From: a virus
Strand: one strand, 5' to 3'
Virus record (IMG/VR): IMGVR_UViG_3300045988_051499
Length of the DNA stretch: 64,000 bases
A program made the translations under genes and the position numbers. This document shows positions 657 through 62,014 of this stretch, in pieces. How positions within the stretch are numbered: the first letter of the stretch is position 1; each line of letters opens with the position of its first letter. The notes beneath the pieces are model-generated. The model made no database searches. It was given only the letters and a program-made list of their open reading frames with translations, and was not told where the DNA came from.

Positions 657-2846
657 TTAATGAATCCAATGATCTGATACAGTAACATCTGCACCTAAAA
701 ATACATTAGGACAGAATGGTTTCCCTCCATCTATCATACATTTAACTAATACCTTAGATACTTCATCGGCAATAGATTCTGGGCATTCTAGATTAAACTC
801 GTCATGGACTGGAACACACATCTTAACAATGTTAAGAAGCTTATGCTCCTTAATCCAATTAAATAGTTTAATAGAGGAAAGTTTAAAACACATTGCTCCC
901 CTGTTCTGAATACGATAATTGATAGACTGCTTTTCAGATGCTGCTTTTCTCTGAAAATATCTCTTAACGTCTTGGACGGTATCACAGCCAGGAGAATCTC
1001 TCTTCATTTCTCTGTAATAATCCCAGAACTCTGGGTCATTGAACTTCTTAGAAATCCGCCAGAGGTCATCAATATCATATATATGTGCTCTATGCTTAGT
1101 TATAGGATTTAACAAAATATAACCATCCCTCATTACCGCCATTCTACAATAATCTTGATACTGTTTTACTCCAGGGAAACCCTTCATAAAGTTATCATAG
1201 ATTTCTTGAGCTTCTGACAACGGTAGACCCTTGTTATTAGCTATAGTATTTGCATCGCCTCCATAATTGATGGCAAATTCAATACCTTTAGCATCCTGTC
1301 TTTGGGCATGATATAATTTAGCTATATCCTCTATAGGGCAGTCTCTAGGGATAATATTCGGATAAGACATTTTAGCTACTAGACTATGAACATCCCCACA
1401 GCCATGTTCAAATAGTTCAATCATAGCCTCGTCCTTAGATACAGAAGCAATGATTCTACTTTCTTGAGACTGATAATCCGCAGAAATCCACTTATTACCT
1501 TTCTCTGCAGTAAAACATGCTCTAGTTTCCTTGTCATGAGGTAAATTCTGTAGATTAAGTTTATATACTCCTCCTCCAGAACTTACTCTAGCTGTATCAG
1601 CTCCTAGTGAGTGAAAATCTACATGGATTCTTCCAGTCTTAGGGTTAATTGCCTTCAACCAGTTTTCCCCATAAGTAGAAACCACTTTTGCAGCTTCCTG
1701 ATATTTTAGATAGATAGGAATAATCGGGAAATCTTTAGCCTGTGGAGCTAGAAGCTTAGCTTCAACAGATTTCTTTTCCTTCTTAGTTTGCTTATCAAAT
1801 GTCTTGACTTTAATTCCTAATAATTCAAATAACTTGATAACTTGTTGAGAGCTACTCCAGTTAATTGTGCACTTAGGCTTGGTATCAAAGCCATTAAATA
1901 AATCACCTTGATTATCTACCTTAGTAAATTGACTTATTACTCTTTTTCTATAAGCTTTAACCTTTCCGTCTGGTGTTTCAAGGTCTTCCTGAGGGCATCG
2001 GACATATTTCTCTTTTAGCAGTCTAGCTACTTCATCCTCTATTTCCATAAGATTATAAAATTCCAGTTCTGGGTATTTAATATCCCATCCATCATGCTCA
2101 TGTCTCTTTTCAGAATCCCATTGAACTACCCAATCGTTTAGTTCTTGCTCAGCATCCTTCAGCTTAACAAGGTCTTTAGCCATCTTATTTCTCCATTTTA
2201 CGACATCTAGATGAACACCGCAATGCTTGAAATAAGCAAGACTCTTGATAAACTCACACTCAAGTTTCATAGCAAGATTTAATTCTTGCTTAGCAAGCTC
2301 TATTTCTTGTTTTTCTTTAATGTCTTCTAGCCACATTACGTCTCCTGCAGCATAGACTACTACATCTTCAGTAAGACCATCATTTATAATCTTACCTCGA
2401 ACAGATTTATCTAAGTCATAGTTTAGATAATTCCATGCAGCTGCTTTCAAACTCATTTCTCTTATATTAGCTGGATAGCCTAACCAAAGTAATTTCTCGG
2501 CAATCATACCATCCCAGATATAATTTGGCCAAATATCCTGCACATATAAAAACCCTAAGTCAAACATTAAATTCCATCCAAGAAATACTCTATCAGACTC
2601 AAAATAATTCTTTATCTCAGCTTTCTCTTCTGCTGACATAGTTGTCCAGTCAAAGACAACTTGATTTTCTTTGCAACCTAGTTGCACAGTTAGTAACTCC
2701 TTAGTATGCGCATCTAATCCCTTAGTTTCAGTATCAAATTGAACTAAAGAAAGAGGCAACAATATTTTCATTGCCTCCTCGAAACTTACTTCTTTGTATT
2801 TTGTAGACACAAATAAAGTTTTATTCCGACTTACTAAATAAATCAT
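657..2846 (-). CDS. polA: DNA polymerase I family A with 3'-5' exonuclease domain
   Basis: 729 aa; N-terminal exo motif FDTETKGLD; Pol A motif A (ISADYQSQESRI), motif B (RQDAKGIEFAINYGG), motif C (VHDEFNLE). Confidence 0.85.
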   Translation of the reverse strand: MIYLVSRNKTLFVSTKYKEVSFEEAMKILLPLSLVQFDTETKGLDAHTKELLTVQLGCKENQVVFDWTTMSAEEKAEIKNYFESDRVFLGWNLMFDLGFLYVQDIWPNYIWDGMIAEKLLWLGYPANIREMSLKAAAWNYLNYDLDKSVRGKIINDGLTEDVVVYAAGDVMWLEDIKEKQEIELAKQELNLAMKLECEFIKSLAYFKHCGVHLDVVKWRNKMAKDLVKLKDAEQELNDWVVQWDSEKRHEHDGWDIKYPELEFYNLMEIEDEVARLLKEKYVRCPQEDLETPDGKVKAYRKRVISQFTKVDNQGDLFNGFDTKPKCTINWSSSQQVIKLFELLGIKVKTFDKQTKKEKKSVEAKLLAPQAKDFPIIPIYLKYQEAAKVVSTYGENWLKAINPKTGRIHVDFHSLGADTARVSSGGGVYKLNLQNLPHDKETRACFTAEKGNKWISADYQSQESRIIASVSKDEAMIELFEHGCGDVHSLVAKMSYPNIIPRDCPIEDIAKLYHAQRQDAKGIEFAINYGGDANTIANNKGLPLSEAQEIYDNFMKGFPGVKQYQDYCRMAVMRDGYILLNPITKHRAHIYDIDDLWRISKKFNDPEFWDYYREMKRDSPGCDTVQDVKRYFQRKAASEKQSINYRIQNRGAMCFKLSSIKLFNWIKEHKLLNIVKMCVPVHDEFNLECPESIADEVSKVLVKCMIDGGKPFCPNVFLGADVTVSDHWIH

Positions 2847-3081
2847 GTTGATAGATTTCGATGTTATTTATTTCAACATCTTTGGATTTGAACCTATTAT
2901 AAATAGCTTCTTCAACTGCACCTTTAATATCATCTTCATCTATTACTTCTACATCTACGAATAACCCTAATTCAACTCCTACTTCTACCTTAACCTTAGT
3001 AGGTAGTGGTTCATTGTAAGGTGCTCTAGGGTCATTAGCTGCACCCATTGGATAGTTATCTAAAGTCGTCATATGGGTCAT
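2821..3081 (-). CDS. hypothetical protein
   Basis: 86-aa ORF overlapping polA stop by 26 nt, typical phage packing. Confidence 0.3.
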   Translation of the reverse strand: MTHMTTLDNYPMGAANDPRAPYNEPLPTKVKVEVGVELGLFVDVEVIDEDDIKGAVEEAIYNRFKSKDVEINNIEIYQHDLFSKSE

Positions 3082-3379
3082 AAGTTAAAGGATCAACTAC
3101 TTCCCAATCATCTGCGTTTATATCTTCACCATCAAAAGGATAGTAAGTACAAGTCCTATCAGAAAAGTCATACATGATAAACTGGTCATGGTATGTAATA
3201 CCTACACCGTAACTACACATAAGAGCTTTCATATCATCAGGGATAGAACGCATAGCAGGTATTCCATCTCCAGAAATCATTGCAGGTATCTGCATAAATA
3301 TCACCAGATTGCTCTGAAATACTTTCCTTCTTACTACTTTTCCCTCTTGTAACTTAGACAATATTTCTCCGAATTTCAT
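3056..3379 (-). CDS. hypothetical protein
   Basis: 107-aa ORF in array. Confidence 0.3.
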   Translation of the reverse strand: MKFGEILSKLQEGKVVRRKVFQSNLVIFMQIPAMISGDGIPAMRSIPDDMKALMCSYGVGITYHDQFIMYDFSDRTCTYYPFDGEDINADDWEVVDPLTYDPYDDFR

Positions 3380-4224
3380 TACATTAAATTTTTAAGTTGA
3401 TTAGAAAATCTACGTCTTAATTTAGCTAAAGCTCCCTCCTTCATCTGTCTTATTCTTTCTCCTCCAACACCGTACATATCAGCTATAATTTTAGGATTGA
3501 CCGGAGCCATTCCTATACCAAATAGCATACAGATTAAATCATGCTCTCTAATTGTTAATTTAGAAAGTAGATTCTCTAGCTCTTTAGTTACATAGCTTTT
3601 ATTTACTTGTTCGTCAAGGGGATCTTCACCATCTGGAATAATATCACAGACTTGACTGTTTTCTTCATCTCCTCCTATGAAATCGTCCACAGAAACTAAC
3701 TTATTAGAAAACTGTGCTAGATAGTCAATTTGCTCCCTAGGAATATCAGTCATTTCTGATATTTCTTCGGAACTTGGATTTCTATCATGCGATTGCAAGA
3801 ATTTATTAGTTGCATCGAGTATACTTATTACCAATAATTGCTGAGACATTGGAAGACGAATTTCTCGTGCTTGCCAATATATAGAATTATAGATACTTTG
3901 TCTAATCCACCATACAGCATATGACAAGAATGTAACTCCTCTTTCTGGGTCAAACTTATCAATAGCTTTCATTAATCCTTCATTTCCACTAGAGATTAAA
4001 TCCATTAAAGGGATACCTCTATTCTGAAATTGCTTGGCGATAGTCACAACAAACCTAAGATTTGATTTTATGACTTGTTCTCTAGCAACATCATCTCCTT
4101 TTTGAGCCTCACAAATGAGACGAGTTACCTCAGTACTATCTAAGATCTTATATTTAGATATATCCCTGAGATAACTCGTCAACAGTGAGTCAGAACGGTC
4201 TGTGAAAATGATTTTTTTACTCAC
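3379..4224 (-). CDS. sigma-70 family RNA polymerase sigma factor
   Basis: region 2-like VTIAKQFQNRGIPLMDLISSGNEGLMKAIDKFDPERGVTFLSYAVWWIRQSI and region 4-like HTH ...ADMYGVGGERIRQMKEGALAKLRR. Confidence 0.65.
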   Translation of the reverse strand: MSKKIIFTDRSDSLLTSYLRDISKYKILDSTEVTRLICEAQKGDDVAREQVIKSNLRFVVTIAKQFQNRGIPLMDLISSGNEGLMKAIDKFDPERGVTFLSYAVWWIRQSIYNSIYWQAREIRLPMSQQLLVISILDATNKFLQSHDRNPSSEEISEMTDIPREQIDYLAQFSNKLVSVDDFIGGDEENSQVCDIIPDGEDPLDEQVNKSYVTKELENLLSKLTIREHDLICMLFGIGMAPVNPKIIADMYGVGGERIRQMKEGALAKLRRRFSNQLKNLM

Positions 4225-6139: not shown

Positions 6140-6392
6140 ATCCTCGTTTTGCTAGCTCTTTCTCCATTTCGTCTAAAATATCATCAATGATACAGTCAGT
6201 TAGACAATCAGAGTCAGGAAAGCCTAAGTTCCGCAGATGATAATCTATGTTATCTCCTACTTCATTAAGTATCATCCAACCTTCGATTTTCTCCTCTCCA
6301 TCTCTTATAAGTGTGCATATCACTTGGTCGATTAACTTAGGGATATTCACATCGTAGTTCTTAACTACCTCTACATTATAACTTATTATCAT
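6129..6392 (-). CDS. hypothetical protein
   Basis: 87-aa acidic ORF. Confidence 0.3.
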   Translation of the reverse strand: MIISYNVEVVKNYDVNIPKLIDQVICTLIRDGEEKIEGWMILNEVGDNIDYHLRNLGFPDSDCLTDCIIDDILDEMEKELAKRGYEC

Positions 6393-7756
6393 GCTTCGTC
6401 TTCAATATTAGTTTCACCTTTGTCAAGTTCCTTTCCTTCCTTATCTAGGAATTTAAAACATTTAAGCTTAAATGCCTCAGATTTCATATTCTCAATCTTA
6501 ATAACTATTCCCTCATGAGGTACTTTGTTATCGCAAGATGGCGAAGTTCGCTCCATATAGAATCTAGCGTCGTTAGCTAATTTCTCCATGAAATTTTCGT
6601 TCCAGTGCTCAGCTTCGTTAAGTTCTGGATATAAGCTATTGGCAGTACCATAATACCACTCTTCTACTGGGATAAGACCTACCTTAGCACACCATTGTTG
6701 AACTTCCCTAGCACTAAATTCGTGAACTACACCATCAACATTAGTTAATGTTACACGATATATTCGCACTTTAAAGTGCTTTTCGTGAGTATACTGTTCT
6801 CCTTCTTTAGGAGGCATACAGCCATAGTCATAATTCTTTTGGATATAGCCACCATTAGGTAAGAAACCAACGATTTCATAATATGCAGTCATACCTTTAG
6901 ACAAGCAAGGTTTAACTATTTTATCAGCTTCCGCCCAAACGTCACACCCGTAGAATCCAGGAGTAACATTCTTATTATAGAACTGATTCTTTATTACCGT
7001 TCTAGAAGCATACAAATAGTCATACTTATTGAACTCTTCTCCAGTAAGCCATTTAGCGATTTTCTGTTTCCAGTTCAGGTCTTGTTTACAAAGCACATAA
7101 GCTGATATACCAGAAGTTCCGTGAATTTTCTCAGTAATACTGATTAAATCATTTGGATGAATTACATTAGGACATTTCTTAATAAGAGTTGTGTCGTAGT
7201 GGAATCTAAATTGTTCATCAATGACCTTGCTGATTCCTTTGACCTTCTTCGTTTGGTTGTTACGTGGTGTGCCACCTTGTCCTTGCTGTCTCTTGGGAAT
7301 GTACTTTTTGTTAATCCAAAATTCTTTGCCTTCATGTTCTACAATATCAAATTCAATACCTGCCTCAACTTCAATCTCCTTATTAGTTACAGACATTATA
7401 TAGTTCTGAAACTGGACTACCGGAAGAATAAAGCCTTCAGATAGCTCATTCTTTAATCTGATAGCTTTTACTCTACCATTATCCTCAAACATACCAGTTT
7501 GTTCTGGGTCATTGTTTAATTCTTTATGACGATAAAGATTACAATATCTCAGAAAATCTGGATTTATACAACAAGCTGTTGGAAAATATACATATAGTCC
7601 TGGCTGAGAATCAATCCCAGTAATGATATTGAAACCATCAATGGTACAACACTTAAGTCTAGTTACTTCTGGGTTACTGTGTTGTCTAAAATTCTTAATT
7701 TCTACAATCTTTGCCAAATAATTGACATTGGCTTTCTTACTTTTTGATAACTTCAT
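6389..7756 (-). CDS. RNA ligase (Rnl2-like nucleotidyltransferase)
   Basis: motif I EKIHGTS matches the T4 Rnl2 lysine-adenylate motif EKIHGTN; 455 aa with extra N-terminal domain. Confidence 0.55.
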   Translation of the reverse strand: MKLSKSKKANVNYLAKIVEIKNFRQHSNPEVTRLKCCTIDGFNIITGIDSQPGLYVYFPTACCINPDFLRYCNLYRHKELNNDPEQTGMFEDNGRVKAIRLKNELSEGFILPVVQFQNYIMSVTNKEIEVEAGIEFDIVEHEGKEFWINKKYIPKRQQGQGGTPRNNQTKKVKGISKVIDEQFRFHYDTTLIKKCPNVIHPNDLISITEKIHGTSGISAYVLCKQDLNWKQKIAKWLTGEEFNKYDYLYASRTVIKNQFYNKNVTPGFYGCDVWAEADKIVKPCLSKGMTAYYEIVGFLPNGGYIQKNYDYGCMPPKEGEQYTHEKHFKVRIYRVTLTNVDGVVHEFSAREVQQWCAKVGLIPVEEWYYGTANSLYPELNEAEHWNENFMEKLANDARFYMERTSPSCDNKVPHEGIVIKIENMKSEAFKLKCFKFLDKEGKELDKGETNIEDEA

Positions 7757-11725: not shown

Positions 11726-12303
11726 ACTCCAGTATGTCCAAATCCTCCTTCTCCTCGTTCAGTAGAAGGTAATTCTTCAACAACTTCCCATTCTATAGTT
11801 TCATGCTTAGCAATAACTATTTGGGCAATTCTTTCTCCATCAGTAATTCTAACTGGGACATTAGAAGTGTTCACTAATACAACTCCAATCTCTCCTCTGT
11901 AGTCGGCGTCAATGGTTCCAGGTGAATTAAGGACAGTAAGTCCCAATTTTAGTGCAAGACCGCTTCGTGGTCGAACTTGCGCCTCGTAACCCTTAGGTAA
12001 GGCTATAAACAATCCAGTCGGAATCAAACATCTACCTCCGGGCTTTATTTCAATAGTAGAAGCAACGGGAATACTGGGAACTCTTCTATTAGTAGGATTT
12101 CCTTCCTTGTCTACCACAAATGGACCATTTGGATCTTCAATTTTACTAATAGCTACAACATCAGCATCGAAAAAGAATTTTTCAGGCTTATTGTCTACTA
12201 ACTTAATTCTACTAAAGTCTCCTCTAATATCCATACCTGCTGATAAGGGAGTTTCATACTGAGGAAGTTGATGTCTTGATTTATTAATTATGAGTACTTT
12301 CAT
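11722..12303 (-). CDS. dut: dUTP diphosphatase
   Basis: trimeric dUTPase motifs [29 protein letters not shown]. Confidence 0.8.
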
Positions 12304-12838
12304 GTAATAAAATAAATTCAGTTAAATAAAATCTTGCATCTATAACACACTTAGGAACTAGTCCTTCTAGGCTTAAATTAGATCTTAGGGCATCTCTTAC
12401 AACAGTAGCCGATATACCTTCTTCTACCTGTTCTCTTGCCATGAGAGTCATTGATATATAACCCTTCAGCATAAACTTTGGAAACCATGTTGTAATAATT
12501 TCGTATCCATCGCTATAGTAGATATTAAAATGGGACTCTTTTATAATACTAACTATGTTAGCATATAAATAGAATCCCCAATCCTGAGAGTTATCAGACT
12601 CATCAGTCAAATCATTAAGAGGCTGAATGATACATCTACTAAGTAAACCTTCGTCCTCTAAGGCAGTTTCTAGTAATTTTATCCTAACCTTTATAGGAAT
12701 AGGATTACGCTTGTTTACTTTATCAGCACTACCAACTAACAAAAGAACCTTATCGTTCTCTGAACAAGCTTTTTTAATTAAAGCTAGGTGCCCATTGTGA
12801 ATGGGCTGAAACCTAGCTAAAATAACTCCATATTTCAT
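12284..12838 (-). CDS. nicotinamide/nicotinate mononucleotide adenylyltransferase (NadM-type)
   Basis: [14 protein letters not shown], the (H/T)xGH nucleotidyltransferase motif in NadM-like GRFQPxHxGH context. Confidence 0.6.
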
Positions 12839-32084: not shown

Positions 32085-32894
32085 TTATTTACAAACGTCT
32101 ATTACAGTTAAGTTCTCGTTGCTGGGACGATAATTAATATCCCTATGAGAATTAGATACAATAACCTGGTCAAAATTATTACACATATTAATCAGACCTT
32201 TATCATTAACTGCGTGACATACGATTATGATAAACTTGCTATTTGGATATCTCTCTTTGAGAACCTTAAGCTCTCCTAGGAAAGTTCCTCCGGCATCACA
32301 CAAGTCATCAATGAACACAAATGTAGAATAGTAGCAATTCTTAGACTCCTCTATTTCAAAGGACTCAATTCTTCCAGTCTCTAGATTTCTTTCCTTTTTG
32401 AAGACTAAATAACCATAGTGAGAATAGTTACTTCCATATCTGTCCTTCGCCCCATGGTCTGGGAACACGATATTACTTTGGGCTGGAATCCAAGAGTGGT
32501 GTCCAAATTCCCAAGGTAAACATCTGTCACCAAGAAGATGAAAAGTTCTACTAGAATGTGCCTCAAGAACATATATGTTTCTATAGCCTAAGCTATTTAA
32601 CATATTACATACTACTTTCAAGGAGAATGGACGATTAAAACTCATTACTCTATCCATACGCATAGACATTAAATAAGTAATGTGTAAATCCCATTCTACT
32701 TCTTGTCTATCTAAAATATCTCCTACTTGCACTAAGAGGAATAAATCCTCAGTATTAGATATTCTACAAATGACATCAATAGATTCCTTTCTGTTTAATT
32801 CCTCAGTAAGGAAAAACTGAGGCTCTCCATCAGGAAATCTAGTAACATCGTACTTAATTTCACTGATTTCCTTGTTGATTAAGTTTAATTTCAT
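32085..32894 (-). CDS. ribose-phosphate pyrophosphokinase (Prs)-family protein
   Basis: VFPDHGAKDR (cf. Prs VSPDAGGAKR) and PRPP/phosphoribosyl-binding loop FIDDLCDAGGTF (cf. LVDDMADTCGT). Confidence 0.6.
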   Translation of the reverse strand: MKLNLINKEISEIKYDVTRFPDGEPQFFLTEELNRKESIDVICRISNTEDLFLLVQVGDILDRQEVEWDLHITYLMSMRMDRVMSFNRPFSLKVVCNMLNSLGYRNIYVLEAHSSRTFHLLGDRCLPWEFGHHSWIPAQSNIVFPDHGAKDRYGSNYSHYGYLVFKKERNLETGRIESFEIEESKNCYYSTFVFIDDLCDAGGTFLGELKVLKERYPNSKFIIIVCHAVNDKGLINMCNNFDQVIVSNSHRDINYRPSNENLTVIDVCK

Positions 32895-33324
32895 CTACTA
32901 CATATTTTAAGATTTCATAACTTTCTTCCAGACCTGCCCTATCATCTAGGAGGATATTGTAATAAGGTTTCTTAGATTTAGAGAATATAGAACTACTAAT
33001 GTTTGGAGCAGATAAAGTATTAGAAGTAATATTTGCTATTCCTAATCGCATACAAATTGTCTGCTTTGCCATAATTTTATAATCATCTTCATCAGTGGTG
33101 AATAAAATCATTTCAAAACCTAGAAGTGAGCATTCTTTAAGTAGTTCTATAACGCAACTATAATCTCCGCCAGTATTATGGTAATCGAAAATAGTATTAT
33201 CAAAATCGAAAGCGACTATTAGCTTTCCGTATTTATGATACTCTTCTAATAGTCGTTTCTTGCAAGCTTCTTTCCCAAAAGGATGATTAAAGTCCATGGT
33301 CAATTCTTTGTCTGATTTCTTCAA
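32860..33324 (-). CDS. HAD-family phosphatase
   Basis: HAD motif I VAFDFDNTIFDY. Confidence 0.45.
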   Translation of the reverse strand: MKKSDKELTMDFNHPFGKEACKKRLLEEYHKYGKLIVAFDFDNTIFDYHNTGGDYSCVIELLKECSLLGFEMILFTTDEDDYKIMAKQTICMRLGIANITSNTLSAPNISSSIFSKSKKPYYNILLDDRAGLEESYEILKYVVDEIKLNQQGNQ

Positions 33325-34837
33325 GAGAATATTCTTTCTTCAAGATACCATCTTCAAAGACAGTCTCTAAGCATCCCTCTTTTTCCTCCTCGATTGAGAC
33401 CTGGTCGGTAGCAGTATACTTCCCATCCAGACATTTATAGACAGCAATCAAACCTTTCAAAGAGTTCTTAGTACCATCATCAGTTTTAGGATGTTTGAAG
33501 ATTTCTTTCAATTCGCCATTTACTACGCAAGCAGTAGCCTTAATAGCAAACCCAAGACTATCTCTACTTGCATACTGATAGGAATATGAACCTACTCCCA
33601 GAACGAGATTACAAGCCGCCATATGAGCGTTTTCTAATCTCAAGTAGATTTGCTTTTGACGTTCTAGAGTAATAGAATCTCCATAAAGCAGACCAACCTT
33701 AGTGCTAGGATAACGGTAATCCTTTGAAGTAGTATTCCATCCGAAGATTTTACCAAGCATATAATATGCCCCATAATATTGACCTTCGGACACTTCAACA
33801 TACTCTGCATCGTCGTTAAACGGAGCATAGCAGCAATAATACTTACCTTCTTTCATTCTGGTATTGAAGTGAGGATTAGTTCTCAACCCGCAGATTATAT
33901 CTACTGGGTCTCCACTATCAGGACGGATTACTACTCTACCATCACGAGCCATAATGTCTTTCTTCAGCTTGGGCAAGAAATTTTCAATTACATTCCAGAA
34001 ATCCCAAGTATCAGATACAATAGAAACAAACCCAGAAGGATACAAATCATTAATTAGACGTTTGAAAGTGCCCAGCTCATCTTCCTCCCCTCCAGCACAC
34101 ATTACAGAGTGTTCTGTTGCTGGAACTGTAGCAGCAATCAATTCCTCGTCTGAATTAGCTCCATAATATTCTTCCAAAGCAGCAATAGCTGGAATAGTTT
34201 CACTTCCCACAAAAGAAGTCATATGCGCCATACCAGATATAATTGCGGCTTCCATTCCCGCCATACCTCGCATTGAGAAATCATGACAACAAAAACCAAG
34301 ATTTACATCTGTTGGAAAACCAGTCTTGCAAGCATGACGATGTAGCTCTTTCTTATAAAGCCTAGCTCTAGTAGCAGATGTGCATGGCATCCACAAGGTA
34401 CAGCTGATAATAGTCTCTAAGTAGTTAGTTAACCAAAAGAACTCGGGTAGAGTATTTGTAATGGTCATCATGGGAACCCGAATAGGGCACACAGAACCTT
34501 CAGGAAGAGCCTTTATGCGAATTGGTAGATACCCAAGGTCATATAAAGCTTCAATATGTCTGTACCCAACGGATTCAATACCAACAAAGTTGTTTACTCT
34601 ACGATAGAACATCTCCACAGCTTCCTTCTTTGGTAGATTAAAGAAGTTTTTCTCAAACTGTTTAATGAGATATTCTTTGATTAGGTATTGAATACCAAAT
34701 ACTACTGAACCTTCGGTTGCTTCTGGGAAGTATTTATTACTTCTAGGAGTCCAGTTACTATAAACTTGTTCAGTACCTTCGGGGTACATTCTGTGATGGC
34801 CCAACTTGTAACCATCTGTAGCATTAATTATTTCCAT
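33287..34837 (-). CDS. nicotinamide phosphoribosyltransferase (NAMPT/NadV-like)
   Basis: 516 aa; NATDGYKLGHH N-terminus, IRPDSGDP, VSDTWDFWN and EHSVMC regions co-linear with NAMPT. Confidence 0.8.
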   Translation of the reverse strand: MEIINATDGYKLGHHRMYPEGTEQVYSNWTPRSNKYFPEATEGSVVFGIQYLIKEYLIKQFEKNFFNLPKKEAVEMFYRRVNNFVGIESVGYRHIEALYDLGYLPIRIKALPEGSVCPIRVPMMTITNTLPEFFWLTNYLETIISCTLWMPCTSATRARLYKKELHRHACKTGFPTDVNLGFCCHDFSMRGMAGMEAAIISGMAHMTSFVGSETIPAIAALEEYYGANSDEELIAATVPATEHSVMCAGGEEDELGTFKRLINDLYPSGFVSIVSDTWDFWNVIENFLPKLKKDIMARDGRVVIRPDSGDPVDIICGLRTNPHFNTRMKEGKYYCCYAPFNDDAEYVEVSEGQYYGAYYMLGKIFGWNTTSKDYRYPSTKVGLLYGDSITLERQKQIYLRLENAHMAACNLVLGVGSYSYQYASRDSLGFAIKATACVVNGELKEIFKHPKTDDGTKNSLKGLIAVYKCLDGKYTATDQVSIEEEKEGCLETVFEDGILKKEYSLEEIRQRIDHGL

Positions 34838-47073: not shown

Positions 47074-47145
47074 TAACGCCAACGGGATTCGAACCCGTAT
47101 GGCAGGCGTGAAAAGCCTGAATCCTAACCATTAGATGATGGCGCT
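47074..47145 (-). tRNA. tRNA-Glu(TTC)
   Basis: acceptor AGCGCCA/TGGCGTT, 3-bp D stem as in E. coli tRNA-Glu, anticodon arm CAGGC-TTTTCAC-GCCTG, T arm ACGGG-TTCGAAT-CCCGT. Confidence 0.7.
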
Positions 47146-47148
47146 ATC

Positions 47149-47823
47149 CTACTGCACAATCAAGCTATAAGCTTCTTGCAACAGTTTAATAGTTGGAACC
47201 ATACGGTTATCAACAACTATTATTTTATAAATGTTCAGAATTTCTTTGTAGGTTAAAGATGTACAAGTTAGAAATATCTGCACATCTTCGTTTACAGAAC
47301 CATTTGACAATCCCAAATCTACTTTAATCATACTGGGTAATGTTCCAATCTGAGAAATGTCCCAAGTAGATTTAGTTCTCCTGAAAACTTCCCGCTGTTT
47401 GGAAGTAAGTTGCTTTTCTTTCAATCTAGACTCAATAATAGTACCATCAAACGTTAACGAACCTCCATCGGTATTACTATTATTTAATGCTAGCTGAATC
47501 TTCTGAACTGCAGAGTCTTTAGGTTTTGGCTTAAGTTGCACTCCTTCCTTCAAGCCCTTAATAATCTGCAATGAAGGAATAAAGTCTTTTATTTGAGTTG
47601 CATTCCACACAAGAAATTTTCCAGGACTATCTTTAACAGTAACTATATACTTAGTCCCTCCGTTCAATGGAATAATCACTTGTAAGTCTGCATCACTCAT
47701 TTTACTTAAATGGTCTGATACTCTAACTTTGACGTTTCCAATGACAAAGTAGCGAGAAACAGTTGTTTCCGCTTCGATAATCTCAGTAGCAGTTGCTACT
47801 AAATACTTTTCCAATCTAGTCAT
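47149..47823 (-). CDS. hypothetical protein
   Basis: 224-aa ORF between tRNA-Glu and tRNA-Thr. Confidence 0.4.
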   Translation of the reverse strand: MTRLEKYLVATATEIIEAETTVSRYFVIGNVKVRVSDHLSKMSDADLQVIIPLNGGTKYIVTVKDSPGKFLVWNATQIKDFIPSLQIIKGLKEGVQLKPKPKDSAVQKIQLALNNSNTDGGSLTFDGTIIESRLKEKQLTSKQREVFRRTKSTWDISQIGTLPSMIKVDLGLSNGSVNEDVQIFLTCTSLTYKEILNIYKIIVVDNRMVPTIKLLQEAYSLIVQ

Positions 47824-47850
47824 AAAAATTAATCTAATTTAATGGTTAAG

Positions 47851-47923
47851 ATCCCCCACTCGGATTCGAACCGAGGTCTCGAGATTACAAATCACGTGTT
47901 CTAACCAACTAAACTACAGGGGA
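47851..47923 (-). tRNA. tRNA-Thr(TGT)
   Basis: acceptor TCCCCTG/TGGGGGA (two G-U pairs), anticodon loop TTTGTAA (one U-U in stem), T arm CTCGG-TTCGAAT-CCGAG. Confidence 0.65.
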
Positions 47924-47930
47924 ATAAATG

Positions 47931-47967
47931 CCGAGACTGGGGGATTCGAACCCCAACCTTCACAGTG
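47931..47967 (-). other. tRNA 3'-half-like fragment
   Basis: minus strand CACTGTGAAGG-TTGGGG-TTCGAAT-CCCCA-GTCTCGG-CA: variable, T arm and acceptor 3' strand with no 5' half; abuts tRNA-Asp. Confidence 0.4.
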
Positions 47968-48039
47968 CCGAGAGTACCAGACTCGAACTGGTGACCTTCG
48001 CATAGACAGTGCACTATTCTACCACTGAACTAACCCTCG
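47968..48039 (-). tRNA. tRNA-Asp(GTC)
   Basis: acceptor CGAGGGT/ACTCTCG; D arm TAGTTCAGTGGTAGAATA nearly identical to E. coli tRNA-Asp; anticodon loop CTGTCTA has unusual T37 and a G-A mismatch closing the stem; T arm ACCAG-TTCGAGT-CTGGT. Confidence 0.6.
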
Positions 48040-48050
48040 GTGTAACTGGA

Positions 48051-48602
48051 TTACTCCAGACTAATTAAACCCTTCTCTAACATAATATGGTGATTCGGAC
48101 ATAACCATACTAAATTATTCTCGTTGTTAATCTCCTTAATAAGAGTGTCTTCGTCAAATTCTAATATTCCTTTAAGATGATGTACTTCAAGTATTGCATC
48201 AAATTCATGATTATGACAATATTGACATACTTTCTCACGTTCGGAACTTTCTAATACTCTACGAGCATTAGTCCTTATTTCTTGACATTTAGATGATAAG
48301 TACTTCTGCCCAGATGTATAATAACCTAATGTTTTGTTACCAATTCCATTAAGTTCTTCCCAGCAACTACGACACATTTCTGAATCTTTATGCTTAGGTT
48401 TACCACATCTAGGACATATCTTGTTTTCATCGTGCTTTATCCTACCTCTATTATTGTAAGAAGCAGCACACGAATGACTACAAAACTGTTTCTTCCTCAC
48501 ATCTGCGACCCTCTGATTATCTAGTACTTCGATTACCTTACCACATTCCTTACAGTGGTTAGGATTCTCATAATACAATTTAAGAGATTGTTCTCGATTC
48601 AC
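48051..48602 (-). CDS. HNH homing endonuclease
   Basis: Zn-ribbon Cys pairs and C-terminal HNH motif EVHHLKG...CPNHHIMLEKG; embedded in tRNA cluster. Confidence 0.65.
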   Translation of the reverse strand: MNREQSLKLYYENPNHCKECGKVIEVLDNQRVADVRKKQFCSHSCAASYNNRGRIKHDENKICPRCGKPKHKDSEMCRSCWEELNGIGNKTLGYYTSGQKYLSSKCQEIRTNARRVLESSEREKVCQYCHNHEFDAILEVHHLKGILEFDEDTLIKEINNENNLVWLCPNHHIMLEKGLISLE

Positions 48603-48751
48603 AGATAAGTTTAATTAATTTTAATGACAGTGTGATATGCAAGCCATTACACCACAGCCTCGATATTTAATCCCAGTACCATATTTCTCTGAGGATTTTT
48701 ACTTGTTGTTTGATTTGTTCAGAAATTTTCTACATATTATTTACAGTGTTA

Positions 48752-48824
48752 GTTGGGAAGGGCAGAGTTGAACTGCCGTCTAGAAATTATCAGTTTCTTG
48801 TTCTAACCGTTAAACTACATCCCA
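48752..48824 (-). tRNA. tRNA-Ile(GAT)
   Basis: acceptor TGGGATG/CTTCCCA (one mismatch), anticodon arm AGAAA-CTGATAA-TTTCT, T arm GGCAG-TTCAACT-CTGCC. Confidence 0.65.
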
Positions 48825-48849
48825 ATCGGTTGAGCTATAGCCCTGTCAT

Positions 48850-49411
48850 GTGGACCTAACGGGAGTCGAACCCGTGTCCAAACAACCCTTATTACAAGGA
48901 TAACGTGCGTCTCATTTTTATTACATCAGCTAGTGAGTTCTAGCATTTAGATAGTTTTATTAGAAGAGCTGGATTCTTTACAGTAGAGGTGAACCAGCAG
49001 TCCTCCTACTAACTAATTTACAAACTACCAAACTGGGGGGCTGACTAGAAGTCATTCTTCCACCACTCCATTTACGTTGGAGAACGTCTATTTGTAGCCC
49101 ATAGATAGGCAGTGGAGATTTCAGCTCTACTAACCTTTGGCTTTCAAGTTAATGCATCTAAGCTTCACTGTAACCTGTAGGTACTATGATTCTTCCCTGA
49201 AGGTCTCGTTATAACACTTAGATACAAACCTCTTCTGTTTCTAGGTCTCTCCAGTAACCCGACTTGATTAATAGTGTCTATTAATAAGCCAGCAGCTTAG
49301 GCTGCCATTCTTACAGGTGCAATTTCTGCAGTTATTTGTTTTCTTCGTTTAAAGAGATTGCGCTCTACACGTCCTTATAATTCGTAATCGCCTGTCAAAT
49401 CCAAGTAGGCC
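48850..49411 (-). ncRNA. ssrA: tmRNA (ssrA), one-piece, unusually long
   Basis: 5' GGGCCTACTTGGATTTGACAGGCG (cf. E. coli GGGGCUGAUUCUGGAUUCGACGGG); 3' TTTGGAC-ACGGG-TTCGACT-CCCGT-TAGGTCC-A (cf. E. coli UUUCGGAC-GCGGG-UUCAACU-CCCGC-CAGCUCC-A-CCA); acceptor 7 bp with G3-U70; tag ORF GCA GAA ATT GCA CCT GTA AGA ATG GCA GCC TAA (AEIAPVRMAA) at 49296..49328 with resume codon 84 nt from the 5' end, out-of-frame TAA 2 nt upstream as in E. coli, and stop codon in a hairpin loop GCAGC-CTAA-GCTGC. Confidence 0.7.
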
Positions 49412-49454
49412 CATGTTCCAGTTTATCTCTGATTAGAAAACTGGAGAAAAGAAA

Positions 49455-49712
49455 TTATAGCATTATAGTTGAGCCAGGAGGCAAAATTGTGACCTTACAA
49501 GTAAGCAAACGACGCGTATCCTCAACAGTAAACAGCTTAGGATAGCATAGACCGCTACGCCCACCAATGATAATTAAAGCATCTCCGTACCTCTGAACTA
49601 TAGTTCCAGGCTCCATTTCCTCGTCACAGAACCAATTTACAATCTCAGCTACATCTCCATCTTTCATATTTGTAAGATGTGTTGTGATTGTCTTATTAAT
49701 TACTTTTGCCAT
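49455..49712 (-). CDS. hypothetical protein
   Basis: 85-aa ORF. Confidence 0.35.
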   Translation of the reverse strand: MAKVINKTITTHLTNMKDGDVAEIVNWFCDEEMEPGTIVQRYGDALIIIGGRSGLCYPKLFTVEDTRRLLTCKVTILPPGSTIML

Positions 49713-51302: not shown

Positions 51303-51375
51303 TGGACACGCAGGGACTCGAACCCTATCTTCCGGTGTGCAAAACCAGCGCTCTAGCCATTTGAGCTAACGGCCC
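51303..51375 (-). tRNA. tRNA-Ala(TGC), atypical acceptor
   Basis: D arm GCTC-AAATGGCTA-GAGC, anticodon arm CTGGT-TTTGCAC-ACCGG, T arm TAGGG-TTCGAGT-CCCTG, G3-U70 present, but acceptor pairs 5-7 are mismatched; 3' end GTCCACA. Confidence 0.5.
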
Positions 51376-57771: not shown

Positions 57772-57815
57772 TGTGGACCTAGAGGGCTTTGAACCCCCGA
57801 CCTTCTGATTATGAG
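57772..57815 (-). other. tRNA 3'-half-like element (anticodon loop CTCATAA to acceptor 3' strand)
   Basis: minus strand CTCATAA-TCAGA-AGGTC-GGGGG-TTCAAAG-CCCTC-TAGGTCC-A-CA; overlaps the stop codon of the HNH gene; last 10 nt identical to the tmRNA 3' end. Confidence 0.45.
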
Positions 57816-58357
57816 TCTTTCTTTCTTATTCCTTGAATAATTCTACGAGTTAATCCAAAATGTTGCGCAACTTTCTCCCAATTCTTAAGTATTTCATACT
57901 GCTCATTTACTTCTTCTAGAGAGGGGTAATGTTTATCAGCATCTCTGCATTCCTTAGAACAGTATATCTTACCCTTAGATTTAGGAAATCTTTTGCCGCA
58001 TACTGGGCATACAGACCCAGTCATATTTTCAAAAGACGTTTTATCTTTAGCTTCAGTATTAACTAAATCCTCTACTTCGTCCATTCCCAAGTGAGGATTA
58101 TGTACTTCTCTATGACAATTAGCGCATAGAAGTTGACATTTATCTACTTCCTCTTTAAGCCTTTCTAGACTTGTATTAGATAAATGTCTCATATCTAACT
58201 GAAACTCTTTCTCATCTGGATTGATATGGTGAAATTCTAGAACAGCTATGTTTCTATCATAGCCACATAGTTCACATTTACCACCACGAGATTTTATTAG
58301 CTCTAATTTGCGCTTTAAACCTCTTAACTTTTGTGTATTATAATCATTGTAATTCAT
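57809..58357 (-). CDS. HNH homing endonuclease
   Basis: CELCGYDRNIAVLEFHHINP...CANCHREVHN HNH motif; track ORF (57809..58465, TTG) trimmed to first ATG (MNYNDYNTQK) because the upstream part overlaps a tRNA-like structure. Confidence 0.6.
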   Translation of the reverse strand: MNYNDYNTQKLRGLKRKLELIKSRGGKCELCGYDRNIAVLEFHHINPDEKEFQLDMRHLSNTSLERLKEEVDKCQLLCANCHREVHNPHLGMDEVEDLVNTEAKDKTSFENMTGSVCPVCGKRFPKSKGKIYCSKECRDADKHYPSLEEVNEQYEILKNWEKVAQHFGLTRRIIQGIRKKDS

Positions 58358-58430
58358 ATACAAATATATATGAAAATAATCATAATACCAAATGTTTTGG
58401 TGCAAAATTAAAAATTCAATCCAGAAGTTG

Positions 58431-58507
58431 TAGGGACGGTGGGGTTTGAACCCACGTGCGACCAACTACCCTTTCTACAAGGTATAAGCTTGAGGGGATA
58501 CGTCCCT
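58431..58507 (-). other. tRNA-like element lacking a D arm (acceptor plus T arm minihelix with internal hairpin)
   Basis: perfect 7-bp acceptor AGGGACG/CGTCCCT, T arm GTGGG-TTCAAAC-CCCAC, A73; internal hairpin CCCT-CAAG-CTTATAC-CTTG-..-AGGG with a 7-nt anticodon-like loop; no D stem can be formed. Confidence 0.35.
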
Positions 58508-60040: not shown

Positions 60041-62014
60041 TTACTTCACTTCTTCAAACTCAGTTGTTTCAGCTTTCTTCTCCTCCAACTCTTTCTTGCC
60101 GAGAACACTTTTCAGTGTATCAGCGAAAGGTATAGAGCGAAGCAAGTCGAACGCAGGATTCAAGTTCTCAGCAGTTTTAGCCATGAAGTTACCAGCGGTA
60201 TTCTCGTTACCATAAACAGTAACCTGTCCAAGGTGAACGTGTTCAAACATCTGAGCAGATGCTTCTGCAATACCTGTCAACTGGTCAACTGTCTTGTACT
60301 GAACCACCATTTCAGGAGTCAAGCCAGATTCAATCATCTTCTGGACTGCCAGAGCAGGAGCCATTTCAATAGCCTGGACTTTATCAGCCTCAGCCATCAA
60401 AGATGCTCTCTTACCCTCAGCTTCAGCAAGCAGTTTCTTTCTTGTACCTTCAGCTTCGGCTTCTAGCTGCAACTTTGTAGCATTCGCTTTAGCTTCTGCT
60501 TCTTTCAGAATTTCAGCAGCCTTAGCTTCTGCTTCAAGTACAGCTTTCTGCTTAACAGCTTCTGCTTCAATCGTGATACGTTCCTTCTCCTTTTGAGCAG
60601 GAACAATCGTCTCAGCATGAAGCTTAGCTTCCATAGCCAATGCAGCTGCTTCGTTTACTTCCAGTTGCTTTTCTTGCTTAGTTTTCTCGATAGTCATTTG
60701 AGCTTCTACCTTAGAAGTTCCTGCTACCTTTTCAGCTTCAGCCTTAGCTTTCTCGGCCTCTCCCTTAGCTTTAGAGACTTCAATTGTGGCATTTTGTTCT
60801 GCCACTCCTGCAATCTTATCAGCTTCAGCTGCCTTTACACGCTTGTCTGACTCATACTTAGCAACTGCAGCTTCCTGTTCGTTAATTGCCTTTTGCGTCT
60901 CAGCTTCCTGTTTTTGTTTAGCCTGAGCAATACGAGTTTGTTTCTCTGCTTCTGCTTCTGCTTTCTTAGAGTCAGCTTCTGCTTTAGCCTTAGCTACATT
61001 AGCCTCAGCCAGTGATTCAGACTCTGCTCTGTTAGAATCGGCTTCTGCTTGAGCTTTAGCTATAGCTGAAATTTTCTCAGCTTCTGCTTTAGCTTTCTCT
61101 GATTCCGCTGCAGTATTAGCTTTAGCAATATTGGCAGCTTGTTCAGCTTTCTGATTAGCAATACCTGATTGCTTATTCTTCTCAGCTTCTGCAAGTTTGA
61201 TTTCCTTCTCCTGGTTAATCTCTGCCACACGAACCTCTTGCTCTTGTCTAGTCTGAGCAACAGTAGTTTCACGCTCTTTCTCAGCGTCTGCTACAGCAAT
61301 TTCACGTTGCTTGTTGGTTTCTGCAATCTGAATATCTCCTTTCTTTTTCTCTTCTGCAATGTCAGCCTGTGCCTGAGCAAGAGCTTTAGTTGCAGCTTTC
61401 TGACCTAGATTCTTGATATAGTTTGCATCATCCGAAATATCGGCATTGTTAATGTTGATAATACTGAAACCTACCTTATTCAACTCGGTCTCAATATTCT
61501 CCTTAGCTTTGCCGATAAACTTGATTCTGTCAGCGTTAATTTCCTCAATCGTCATCGTAGCCATCAAGCTTCTCACTTCACCAATGAGAATATCCTTGAT
61601 TTGGTCTGAGATTTCAGAAGTTTTAGCTGTTAAGAATCTACTTGCAGCGTTTTGCATTAATGTTTGAGTAGTTCCAATACCAGTGGTCAATGTTACAGGA
61701 ATAGTTACCTTAATCATTTGACTGGAAACACCAGTAACATTTACTTGAATTTGGATAGGTTTCAAGGACATTTTAGCCCAGTCTTGAATGACAGGCATTA
61801 CGAATGTACCTCCGCCGTGGATGATTTTAGACGGCAGTATAACTTCCTCCGTTTTACCAGTCTTCTCGTTAACTACCTTCTTCTTTCCTGCCTTACCAAA
61901 TACTACCAGGATTTCATCACTAGCACACTTACGATACCGAGACAAAAGTCCGATAAAAGTTACAACTACTAAGAGTACAATAACACCCGCTACAATAAGA
62001 GTTTCTGTTGTCAT
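60041..62014 (-). CDS. SPFH/band-7 (flotillin/YqiK-like) membrane protein with long Ala/Glu/Lys coiled-coil
   Basis: N-terminal TM helix, SPFH domain, then about 350 aa of EAEAKA-type repeats. Confidence 0.65.
   Translation of the reverse strand: MTTETLIVAGVIVLLVVVTFIGLLSRYRKCASDEILVVFGKAGKKKVVNEKTGKTEEVILPSKIIHGGGTFVMPVIQDWAKMSLKPIQIQVNVTGVSSQMIKVTIPVTLTTGIGTTQTLMQNAASRFLTAKTSEISDQIKDILIGEVRSLMATMTIEEINADRIKFIGKAKENIETELNKVGFSIININNADISDDANYIKNLGQKAATKALAQAQADIAEEKKKGDIQIAETNKQREIAVADAEKERETTVAQTRQEQEVRVAEINQEKEIKLAEAEKNKQSGIANQKAEQAANIAKANTAAESEKAKAEAEKISAIAKAQAEADSNRAESESLAEANVAKAKAEADSKKAEAEAEKQTRIAQAKQKQEAETQKAINEQEAAVAKYESDKRVKAAEADKIAGVAEQNATIEVSKAKGEAEKAKAEAEKVAGTSKVEAQMTIEKTKQEKQLEVNEAAALAMEAKLHAETIVPAQKEKERITIEAEAVKQKAVLEAEAKAAEILKEAEAKANATKLQLEAEAEGTRKKLLAEAEGKRASLMAEADKVQAIEMAPALAVQKMIESGLTPEMVVQYKTVDQLTGIAEASAQMFEHVHLGQVTVYGNENTAGNFMAKTAENLNPAFDLLRSIPFADTLKSVLGKKELEEKKAETTEFEEVK

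Follow-up and report, generated by a model that had tools for sequence, protein, structure and literature searches.

An oversized, modular one-piece tmRNA gene encoded by a phage apparently related to crAss-like phages

A one-piece tmRNA gene on the minus strand

We analyzed a 64,000-nucleotide (nt) stretch of viral DNA, IMG/VR record IMGVR_UViG_3300045988_051499 (in full, the window), in which a first-pass annotation had proposed a transfer-messenger RNA (tmRNA, ssrA) gene beside a large tRNA array. The minus strand of positions 48851–49412 was found to hold a one-piece tmRNA gene of 562 nt, counted from G1 to the discriminator A and without the CCA end. The proposed location was thus correct, while both of its ends (49411 to 48850 in place of 49412 to 48851) were offset by 1 nt. 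With the Rfam tmRNA model RF00023 (gathering score 47), the gene scored 70.4 bits (E = 2.4e-25) over 48848–49412, a match that covers model positions 1–374 of 374 and lies far beyond chance. This search had been suggested as a check on the one-piece assignment, which the score, the fold and the covariation described below all uphold. The features of the gene and its closest neighbor are listed in Table 1.

The terminal sequences were read as first described, with GGGCCUACUUGGAUUUGACAGG at the 5′ end and GGAC-ACGGG-UUCGACU-CCCGU-UAGGUCC-A at the 3′ end. In the minimum free energy (MFE) fold, nt 1–7 pair with nt 555–561, and the T-arm and a long helix 2 form in the standard 5′-to-3′ order, so that the two ends co-fold into a tRNA-like domain as predicted. 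Among 53 distinct alleles collected from related viral contigs (see below), 99.7% of alignment cells in the acceptor stem were paired, with compensatory changes at three of seven pairs, and the T-arm was paired in 100% of cells with three of five pairs compensated. The third acceptor pair, recognized at the outset as the G3·U70 alanine identity pair, is a G·U retained in 53/53 alleles. None of the 53 encodes a CCA end. The model for permuted, two-piece tmRNA (RF04321) reached 23 bits against the 47 needed, and the termini pair in the standard order. The T-arm is uninterrupted, which leaves no intron there. A scan for promoters and terminators gave nothing above chance level. On the basis of covariance model, fold and covariation, we conclude that this is a genuine standard-order, one-piece, intron-less tmRNA gene.

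Table 1 Features of the tmRNA gene and its neighbor, in 5′-to-3′ order of the minus strand (positions in the window; nt, numbering within the tmRNA).
Feature	Position	Strand	Evidence or remarks
tmRNA (ssrA), 562 nt, no encoded CCA, next bases CAU	48851..49412	-	RF00023 and sequence reading
Acceptor stem, 5′ strand GGGCCUA (nt 1–7), holds G3 of G3·U70	49406..49412	-	MFE pairing with nt 555–561; covariation
Helix 2, 5′ strand (nt 19–46)	49367..49394	-	Pairs with nt 505–534; 8 compensated pairs in core helices 2–3
Pseudoknot 1 (PK1) region (nt 47–75), invariant stem AGAG/CUCU	49338..49366	-	53-allele alignment; covariation
UAACU, out-of-frame stop triplet plus 2 nt directly before the resume codon	49330..49334	-	Layout (UAA/UAG + NN) in 53/53 alleles
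Tag frame: GCA resume codon, AEIAPVRMAA, UAA stop at 49297–49299	49297..49329	-	Open frame in 53/53 alleles
Helix 5 hairpin GCAGC-CUAA-GCUGC, stop codon in loop	49292..49305	-	98.4% of cells paired, 2 compensated pairs
Added hairpin after helix 5 (nt 123–152), part of the extra length	49261..49290	-	8/11 pairs changed on both sides
Domain A (nt 160–300), closing long-range helix UGGAGA/UCUCCA	49113..49253	-	5/6 closing pairs compensated
Module V1 (nt 186–260), 75-nt end-closed hairpin in the window allele	49153..49227	-	MFE −22.0 kcal/mol, z = −3.9
Module V2 core (nt 303–326), candidate small H-type pseudoknot GCC/GGC + UCUAU/AUAGA	49087..49110	-	Read by hand, tentative
Compact conserved pseudoknot CGUU-CUCC-AACG-UAAAU-GGAG (nt 327–347)	49066..49086	-	Crossing helices with 2 compensated pairs each, 95–97% of cells paired
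Hairpin UGG...UGACU-UCU-AGUCA...CCA (nt 351–379)	49034..49062	-	3 compensated pairs; variants GACC/GGUC, GACU/AGUC, CUGAC/GUCAG
Domain B (nt 384–463), helix GGUAGUUU/AAACUAUC around module V3 (48958–49019)	48950..49029	-	Closing helix 97.4% paired
Final hairpin GCUAG-AACUCA-CUAGC (nt 469–484), just before helix 2 3′ strand	48929..48944	-	2 compensated pairs
Helix 2, 3′ strand (nt 505–534)	48879..48908	-	Fold, covariation
T-arm ACGGG-UUCGACU-CCCGU (nt 538–554), uninterrupted	48859..48875	-	Rfam alignment, covariation
Acceptor stem, 3′ strand UAGGUCC (nt 555–561); discriminator A at 48851	48852..48858	-	Fold, covariation
tRNA-Ile(GAU), 26 nt downstream of the tmRNA, next gene in the same-strand array	48752..48824	-	ARAGORN and Rfam

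Tag and reading frame

The resume codon GCA occupies nt 84–86 (49329–49327) and, as claimed, follows an out-of-frame UAA with two nucleotides in between; E. coli tmRNA has the same spacing (UAG-UC-GCA). From there, the codons GCA GAA AUU GCA CCU GUA AGA AUG GCA GCC UAA specify the tag AEIAPVRMAA, with the stop codon in the hairpin loop where it had been placed. Comparison across alleles supports both the tag and its frame: in 53/53 alleles, this frame has no internal stop and measures either 27 or 30 nt, while stops fall in the two alternative frames in 43 and 42 of the 53. Every allele has UAA or UAG plus NN ahead of a GCN or GGN resume codon.

The 53 alleles contain 16 nucleotide versions of the tag and 13 peptides, comprising GNTEVRMAA, ATYSEVRMAA, AEIAPVRMAA, AERSDVRMAA, AERSDYRMAA, AEIDYNRMAA and singletons; GETEGFRMAA also occurs in the family. 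The N-terminal half is highly variable and the C terminus nearly constant, ending in RMAA in 51 alleles and in RMVA and RLAA in one each, with an arginine at position −4 in all 53. Synonymous changes occur in the final Ala codon (GCC, GCU or GCG), and either UAA or UGA serves as the stop. Taken together, these features mark a reading frame that is translated and under selection, and they confirm the proposed tag. An apparent in-frame TAG in variant tags, a hint of stop-codon recoding, was an alignment artefact; the exact sequences read ATYSEVRMAA.

For comparison, all five -AMAA tags in our bacterial sample (GENNFAMAA, GESNYAMAA, GDYNYAMAA and GEDSYAMAA) came from Bacteroidota, among the matches listed. 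Several phage tags share with Bacteroidota tags the initial G, the nine-residue length and the -MAA end. The sampled Bacteroidota tags carry Ala at position −4, and judged by these sequences the conserved Arg at this position appears to be the family-specific feature of the phage tag. The label 'non-canonical' given to the tag was therefore overstated, as its length is usual, it ends in Ala-Ala and -MAA occurs in Bacteroidota; what stands of it is the arginine.

A family of oversized alleles

Relatives were collected by scanning IMG/VR for four patterns: two taken from the ends of the gene (the 3′ one exact, the 5′ one degenerate), an internal motif and the end of the tag. The oversized tmRNA was present in about 80 viral contigs, most of them 95–200 kilobases (kb) long. 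We delimited 65 copies by acceptor-stem complementarity, which gave the 53 distinct alleles; these measure 513–601 nt and are as little as ~53% identical to the window allele. The ten most divergent members tested all passed RF00023 end to end (73–99 bits, 516–599 nt). As 33 bacterial tmRNAs from sampled genome loci span 345–405 nt, the large size, about 50% above that of bacterial tmRNAs, is a property of the family and not of one sequence; the initial estimate of about 560 nt for the window gene agrees with the 562 nt measured. Similarity to the sampled Bacteroidia tmRNAs was barely detectable (E = 0.005, 5′ third only), and no bacterial source or host tmRNA resembling the phage RNA was among the matches listed (at least 120 genome loci).

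Of the two programs put forward for verification, the RF00023 search served its purpose and ARAGORN, the tmRNA finder inside Pharokka and most virome pipelines, did not: it made no tmRNA call on the whole window or on the tmRNA region alone. It detected three of the 53 alleles, all of 515 nt and each with a wrong, internal and implausible tag, and missed several others of 513–522 nt. We attribute the miss in the window to the length of the gene and do not count it as evidence against it. Separately, several viral contigs (L039/L047/L049 and L055) were seen to carry unrelated tmRNAs of normal size with long, unusual tags, of 406 nt with GNVYNNMEVSGLLATSKVAA and of 378 nt with GNIFNKLSAVGLIRTEENISVA.

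Organization of the RNA body

To assess the fold, a 17-helix core of 98 pairs, including one pair of crossing helices, was laid on the 53-allele alignment (A2). In this core, 93.5% of cells were paired compared to 87.4 ± 0.2% in shuffles, 38 pairs had changed on both sides with 22.3 expected, and the covariation score was 0.215 versus 0.121, with 0/500 shuffles reaching the observed value in each case, although all three margins may overstate the support, as the alleles share ancestry and the structure was itself built in part on these sequences. Slid controls were only 37–50% paired, with 6–14 compensated pairs. The margin is large despite these caveats, and many of the changes are multi-base replacements. 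Automatic helix enumeration was too noisy with 23 alleles and better with 53.

PK1 is the functionally most important pseudoknot in E. coli tmRNA. Its stem is longer in other alleles (AGAGUUGG/CCAACUCU), where inspection of A2 by eye shows covariation in a 3-base-pair (bp) pairing of the loop with downstream sequence (GUA/UAC versus GCA/UGC). In the window allele, the second PK1 stem is not evident, making it the only canonical element not established there.

Downstream of the tag, the added hairpin at nt 123–152 has changed pairs in concert, for example from A-U to G-C in nine alleles. Domain A follows, comprising a hairpin GACCU...AGGUU with the invariant loop AGAAACAGAAG, module V1 and a hairpin UAACUU/AGGUUA; its closing helix is present in essentially every allele, with AGGAGA/UCUCCU, GGAGAA/UUCUCC and GGAAGG/CCUUUC as variants. 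At the V1 site, each allele group has an end-closed hairpin, and those outside the window type are unrelated hairpins of 29–51 nt. In the V2 core, GCC/GGC is replaced by ACC/GGU in relatives, and other alleles hold larger, unrelated modules there; as a significant structure V2 was rejected, being indistinguishable from shuffles. The compact pseudoknot at nt 327–347 changes from CUCCA/UGGAG to CUUCA/UGAAG in some alleles. One pair of the domain B closing helix varies among G·U, G-C and A-U. The V3 module within this domain forms an H-type pseudoknot in the window allele (GUAG(G)AGG/CCUCUAC + GCUGG/CCAGC), which 5/100 shuffles scored as well as, and a pseudoknot of entirely different sequence in the L003 type (AAGCGGA/UCCGCUU + GCUAGAU/AUCUAGC), for which 0/100 shuffles were as good. 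In the final hairpin, GCUAG/CUAGC is exchanged for GCUG/CAGC or GCCAG/CUGGC. Strictly conserved stretches between the modules include AGAAACAGAAGAGGU, GUUAGUA and AGCUGAUGUAAUAAAA. We also noted an 11-bp hairpin module (GGUUUGGAAGC-GUCA-GCUUCUGAACC) at A2 columns ~461–520, which repeats an AGUUUGG motif and precedes a conserved AGUUUGGUAGUUUGU segment; it is inserted once in L197, L204, L209, L212, L222 and L234 and twice in L200.

Both the RF00023 alignment and the allele comparison place the excess between the tag and the 3′ tRNA-like domain, where the first-pass annotation had seen it and had offered extra pseudoknots or an intervening sequence as its source. In a permissive RNA-family scan of 48700–49560, neither introns nor ribozymes matched even at E up to 10, and no relevant family appeared besides the tmRNA models. 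Within the tmRNA gene there is no open reading frame (ORF) of at least 26 amino acids (aa), only ORFs of 20–25 aa. With the T-loop intact, no intron family matched and the excess spread over at least four sites, the extra length is not an intron; of the two sources offered, only the pseudoknots fit. The additional ~150–200 nt consist of the added hairpin and of enlarged, partly interchangeable stem-loop and pseudoknot modules, not of a single insertion.

A different way to account for these modules, above all V1, is that they are intervening sequences excised after transcription, as RNase III does with those of rRNA, leaving a mature RNA that is shorter or in several pieces. The swapping of unrelated end-closed hairpins (29–75 nt) at exactly the same V1 site and the single or double insertion of the 11-bp module in some alleles would suit such excision, and natural two-piece tmRNAs show that breaks in the body are tolerated (PMC11915505). 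We nonetheless regard it as improbable: no intron or ribozyme family was matched, the stems are short and interrupted, the excess is distributed over many sites and even the shortest alleles have 513 nt.

Genomic context and the encoding phage

All but one of the window ORFs of at least 150 aa lie on the minus strand, and G+C content is ~35%. The window encodes replication proteins (DNA polymerase I (PolA), primase, DnaB-like and other helicases, a Sak4-like annealing protein and DNA ligase) as well as an anaerobic ribonucleotide reductase and a dUTPase. ARAGORN identified 19 tRNA genes and Rfam alone a further three, in line with the large tRNA array noted beside the tmRNA. The gene order tmRNA, tRNA-Ile, Asp, Thr, Glu is conserved in the related contigs L001 and L004, and in viral contigs of 95–200 kb the tmRNA is internal, with conserved tRNA neighbors on both sides.

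Near-identical public phage records are only unannotated contigs from human feces. The PolA sequence is closest to crAss-like phages (45–52% amino acid identity), and homologs of the primase are almost exclusively from crAss-like phages and other phages of Bacteroidota. Because of these affinities, we take the DNA to come from an uncultivated gut phage whose replication module is related to Crassvirales. By these protein similarities and the lengths of related contigs (mostly 175–192 kb), it appears to be a large human-gut phage of ~185–190 kb, distantly related to crAss-like phages. Its host probably belongs to Bacteroidota, which the -MAA tag style supports. A 671-aa protein considered as a lineage marker is widespread in large phages and not diagnostic.

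Additional genes of the window, all on the minus strand, include an apparent set for NAD+ salvage or reconstitution, consisting of NAMPT (33287–34837), phosphoribosyl pyrophosphate synthetase (32085–32894) and an NMNAT-like cytidylyltransferase (12284–12838). An RNA ligase (phrog_968) is encoded at 6389–7756 (−); in a genome with 20-plus tRNAs and a tmRNA, it may serve tRNA repair.

Alleles and their flanks differ by the replacement of whole blocks. In L004, for example, identity to the window is 99.7% on the downstream side of the tmRNA and only ~75% upstream. Seven relatives that are near-identical in other respects lack a block of the tRNA array at ~47968–48624, which contains an HNH endonuclease ORF (48051–48602, −) and tRNA-Asp (47967–48039). 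This difference suggests that a mobile homing endonuclease has inserted there. Another HNH-like ORF is found farther along (57809–58465, −). Such replacements in alleles and flanks mark the tRNA/tmRNA region as a recombination-rich zone. The contig L001 is otherwise 99.5% identical to the window, but at its positions 2787–3000 (window 48664–48847) it has a divergent tRNA-Ile allele in place of the segment with tRNA-Ile(GAU). This replacement accounts for the breaks of public contigs precisely at the 3′ end of the tmRNA. A phage attachment site at that end, considered because two fecal contigs start matching there (contig junction 48848), was consequently rejected in favor of the divergent tRNA-Ile segment and an assembly break.

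One relative, L050 (IMGVR_UViG_3300045988_063986, from ~7390), has a tmRNA of the window type in which the 3′ acceptor strand is replaced (...CTCCCGTT joined directly to GGCGTTAC), and it lacks ~1.8 kb downstream, the equivalent of window 47099–48857. Its sequence is consistent with either a broken tmRNA or a deletion junction within the T-arm/acceptor boundary. As a broken copy, it suggests that the gene can be lost and is not indispensable in every genome. This copy, together with the position of the gene in a recombination-rich tRNA region with homing-endonuclease genes, might indicate a drifting passenger captured from a host and without a role in infection. We consider this very improbable, as alleles with identities down to ~53% keep the tag frame, the T-loop, G3·U70 and 38 compensated pairs, ten of ten divergent members tested pass the Rfam threshold and, among the matches listed, no sampled bacterial tmRNA is close enough for recent capture.

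Discussion

In overall design, the phage RNA matches bacterial one-piece tmRNAs as modeled in RF00023. Shared features are the tRNA-like domain with G3·U70, the T-arm, a long helix 2 and a pseudoknot-rich body, a stop triplet plus two nucleotides ahead of a GCN or GGN resume codon, and a tag of 9–10 residues with a hydrophobic-Ala-Ala end whose stop lies in the helix-5 loop. Phage tags such as GNTEVRMAA and GETEGFRMAA resemble GENNFAMAA and GESNYAMAA of Bacteroidota, which belong to a type of short G...(Y/F)A(L/M)AA tags. The phage RNA differs from the bacterial ones in its length (513–601 versus 345–405 nt), in the added hairpin and enlarged domains with interchangeable modules, and in being phage-encoded with no adjacent smpB; it also has Arg at −4, where the sampled Bacteroidota tags have Ala, no encoded CCA and, in the window allele, a weak PK1.

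Phage tmRNAs have been described from Bxz1-like mycobacteriophages, Wildcat, DS6A (tRNA-like domain only) and Bacillus phage G (PMC4131195) and from huge phages (PMC7162821), and ARAGORN located tmRNA genes in 402 of 18,146 phage genomes, ~2% (PMC9004378). Like those of the Bxz1-like phages, Wildcat, phage G, the huge phages and, in two-piece form, the marine phage Melnitz, the RNA described here is complete and comes from a large phage with many tRNAs; it differs in its apparently crAss-related gut lineage, in a size well above the usual and in having escaped ARAGORN, the tool of those surveys. A length beyond 500 bp is shared with intron-containing tmRNA genes, which carry a group I intron in the TψC loop and of which the smallest known has 545 bp (PMC11915505), but the present gene has an unbroken TψC loop (UUCGACU) and no group I intron match at E up to 10, and its excess is in the pseudoknot body. 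In a 2025 tmRNA database, introns are reported from the TψC loop alone, and intron forms are told apart from standard forms by a 500-bp size cut-off together with a score cut-off (PMC11915505), which suggests that standard forms of this length are at least unusual. Our literature search found no paper linking tmRNA to crAss-like phages. As phage tmRNAs were already known, the novelty lies in the expanded, modular and previously unannotated form in a crAss-related gut phage lineage.

The conserved gene has the sequence and structure determinants of a working tmRNA, PK1 not being evident as a pseudoknot in the window allele. The overall best explanation, and one that we consider likely, is that the phage tmRNA keeps ribosome rescue running during infection. 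It would be transcribed within the phage tRNA array, trimmed by tRNA-processing enzymes, provided with CCA by a CCA-adding enzyme and charged with alanine by the host alanyl-tRNA synthetase through G3·U70. Together with host SmpB, it would then enter ribosomes stalled on broken or non-stop mRNAs, where translation would resume at GCA, add (A)AEIAPVRMAA and end at UAA, freeing the ribosome. The C-terminal -MAA would mark the truncated protein for host proteases, most likely as a degradation signal as in Bacteroidota. For the phage, the likely benefit would be that rescue continues while host transcription, mRNA integrity or the host tmRNA supply is compromised. What the sequences themselves show is the identity of the gene, its fold, the tag frame, its conservation across the family and its modular build; expression, processing, charging, use of SmpB and tagging are proposed here from the established trans-translation pathway, and the benefit is likewise proposed. 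A rescue role fits a theme of self-sufficiency that is also apparent in the 20-plus tRNAs, the RNA ligase and the NAD+ salvage genes. It also agrees with the usual proposal that phage tmRNAs maintain the hijacked translation machinery (PMC4131195, PMC7162821, PMC9004378).

Several points weigh against this explanation. With an E. coli SmpB query validated against Pfam SmpB at 194 bits, no homolog was found among ORFs from the window, about one third of the genome, or from as much as 14 kb to either side of the tmRNA in the phage loci; a wider search of viral contigs was swamped by the ends of E. coli prophages adjoining smpB. With none in the examined sequence, the RNA would have to compete for host SmpB. 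As CCA is not encoded either, it would rely on host SmpB and a CCA-adding enzyme, unless these are encoded elsewhere in the genome. To this are added a second PK1 stem that is not evident in the window allele, the shared descent of the alleles behind the covariation statistics, the broken copy in L050 and the indirect assignment of the host.

That SmpB was not found in the examined sequence also bears on whether the RNA interferes with, or reprograms, the host system by out-competing host tmRNA for SmpB and stalled ribosomes, with its different tag altering the fate of proteins, for example through another choice of protease or adaptor, slower degradation or selective recycling of host proteins. 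The Arg at −4, set against Ala in the sampled Bacteroidota tags, and the 13 peptides with their highly variable N-terminal halves are compatible with such a role. DS6A offers a parallel: its tRNA-like-domain-only tmRNA is similar to a molecule that has been shown to inhibit tmRNA, perhaps through titration of SmpB (PMC4131195, PMC11915505). It too is encoded by a phage, without a phage SmpB in its vicinity, and might compete for the SmpB of the host. However, DS6A has little beyond the tRNA-like domain (PMC4131195), whereas the gut-phage RNA has a full conserved tag frame and body. Its tag, moreover, keeps the length, resume-codon context and C-terminal hydrophobic-Ala-Ala of ordinary degradation tags, and -MAA endings are natural in Bacteroidota. 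We therefore view interference as unlikely. That the phage manipulates rescue or proteolysis tagging, as the first-pass annotation suggested, may still hold in some form. Interference, excision and a passenger origin are all less well supported than continued ribosome rescue.

A further, doubtful idea is that the exchange of whole blocks in the pseudoknot body and the variability in the first half of the tag are not neutral but stem from selection acting on the tmRNA of the phage. Such selection could take the form of escape from a host or rival-phage factor targeting tmRNA, of phage-specific partners that recognize invariant single-stranded motifs (such as AGAAACAGAAGAGGU) or of module excision to a multi-piece RNA. 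If it were true, ribosome rescue would be a contested step in the conflict between phages and gut Bacteroidota.

Known phage tmRNAs are rare, and a role has yet to be demonstrated for any of them. The present family is well populated, with at least 53 alleles and ~80 contigs in an abundant type of human-gut phage. Its size shows how far the pseudoknot body can expand and shuffle while the tRNA-like domain and the tag stay fixed. Because ARAGORN recovers only three of the 53 alleles, phage-tmRNA surveys undercount such oversized forms, and covariance-model searches should be added. For an uncultivated phage lineage, the tag style provides a clue to the host (here, Bacteroidota). If needed for infection, the tmRNA would offer a handle on how large phages keep translation running.

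Additional features of the phage sequences

A few observations concern other parts of these genomes. In relatives, RAGATH-34 RNAs and a RAGATH-1 hammerhead ribozyme, all above Rfam thresholds, occur a few kb from the tmRNA (L037 147–254, L061 10331–10435, L197 3086–3183, L222 4815–4912 and L202 444–516), with none in the window. Two tRNA-like sequences recognized only by Rfam, at 51303–51375 (39.5 bits) and 58431–58507 (31.7 bits), both on the minus strand, may be degenerate or unusual tRNAs. The window further encodes a 657-aa protein with an SPFH/Band 7 domain (60041–62014, −) and a sigma-factor-like protein (3379–4224, −; phrog_351, E = 1e-56), the latter unexpected for a strict crAss-like phage.

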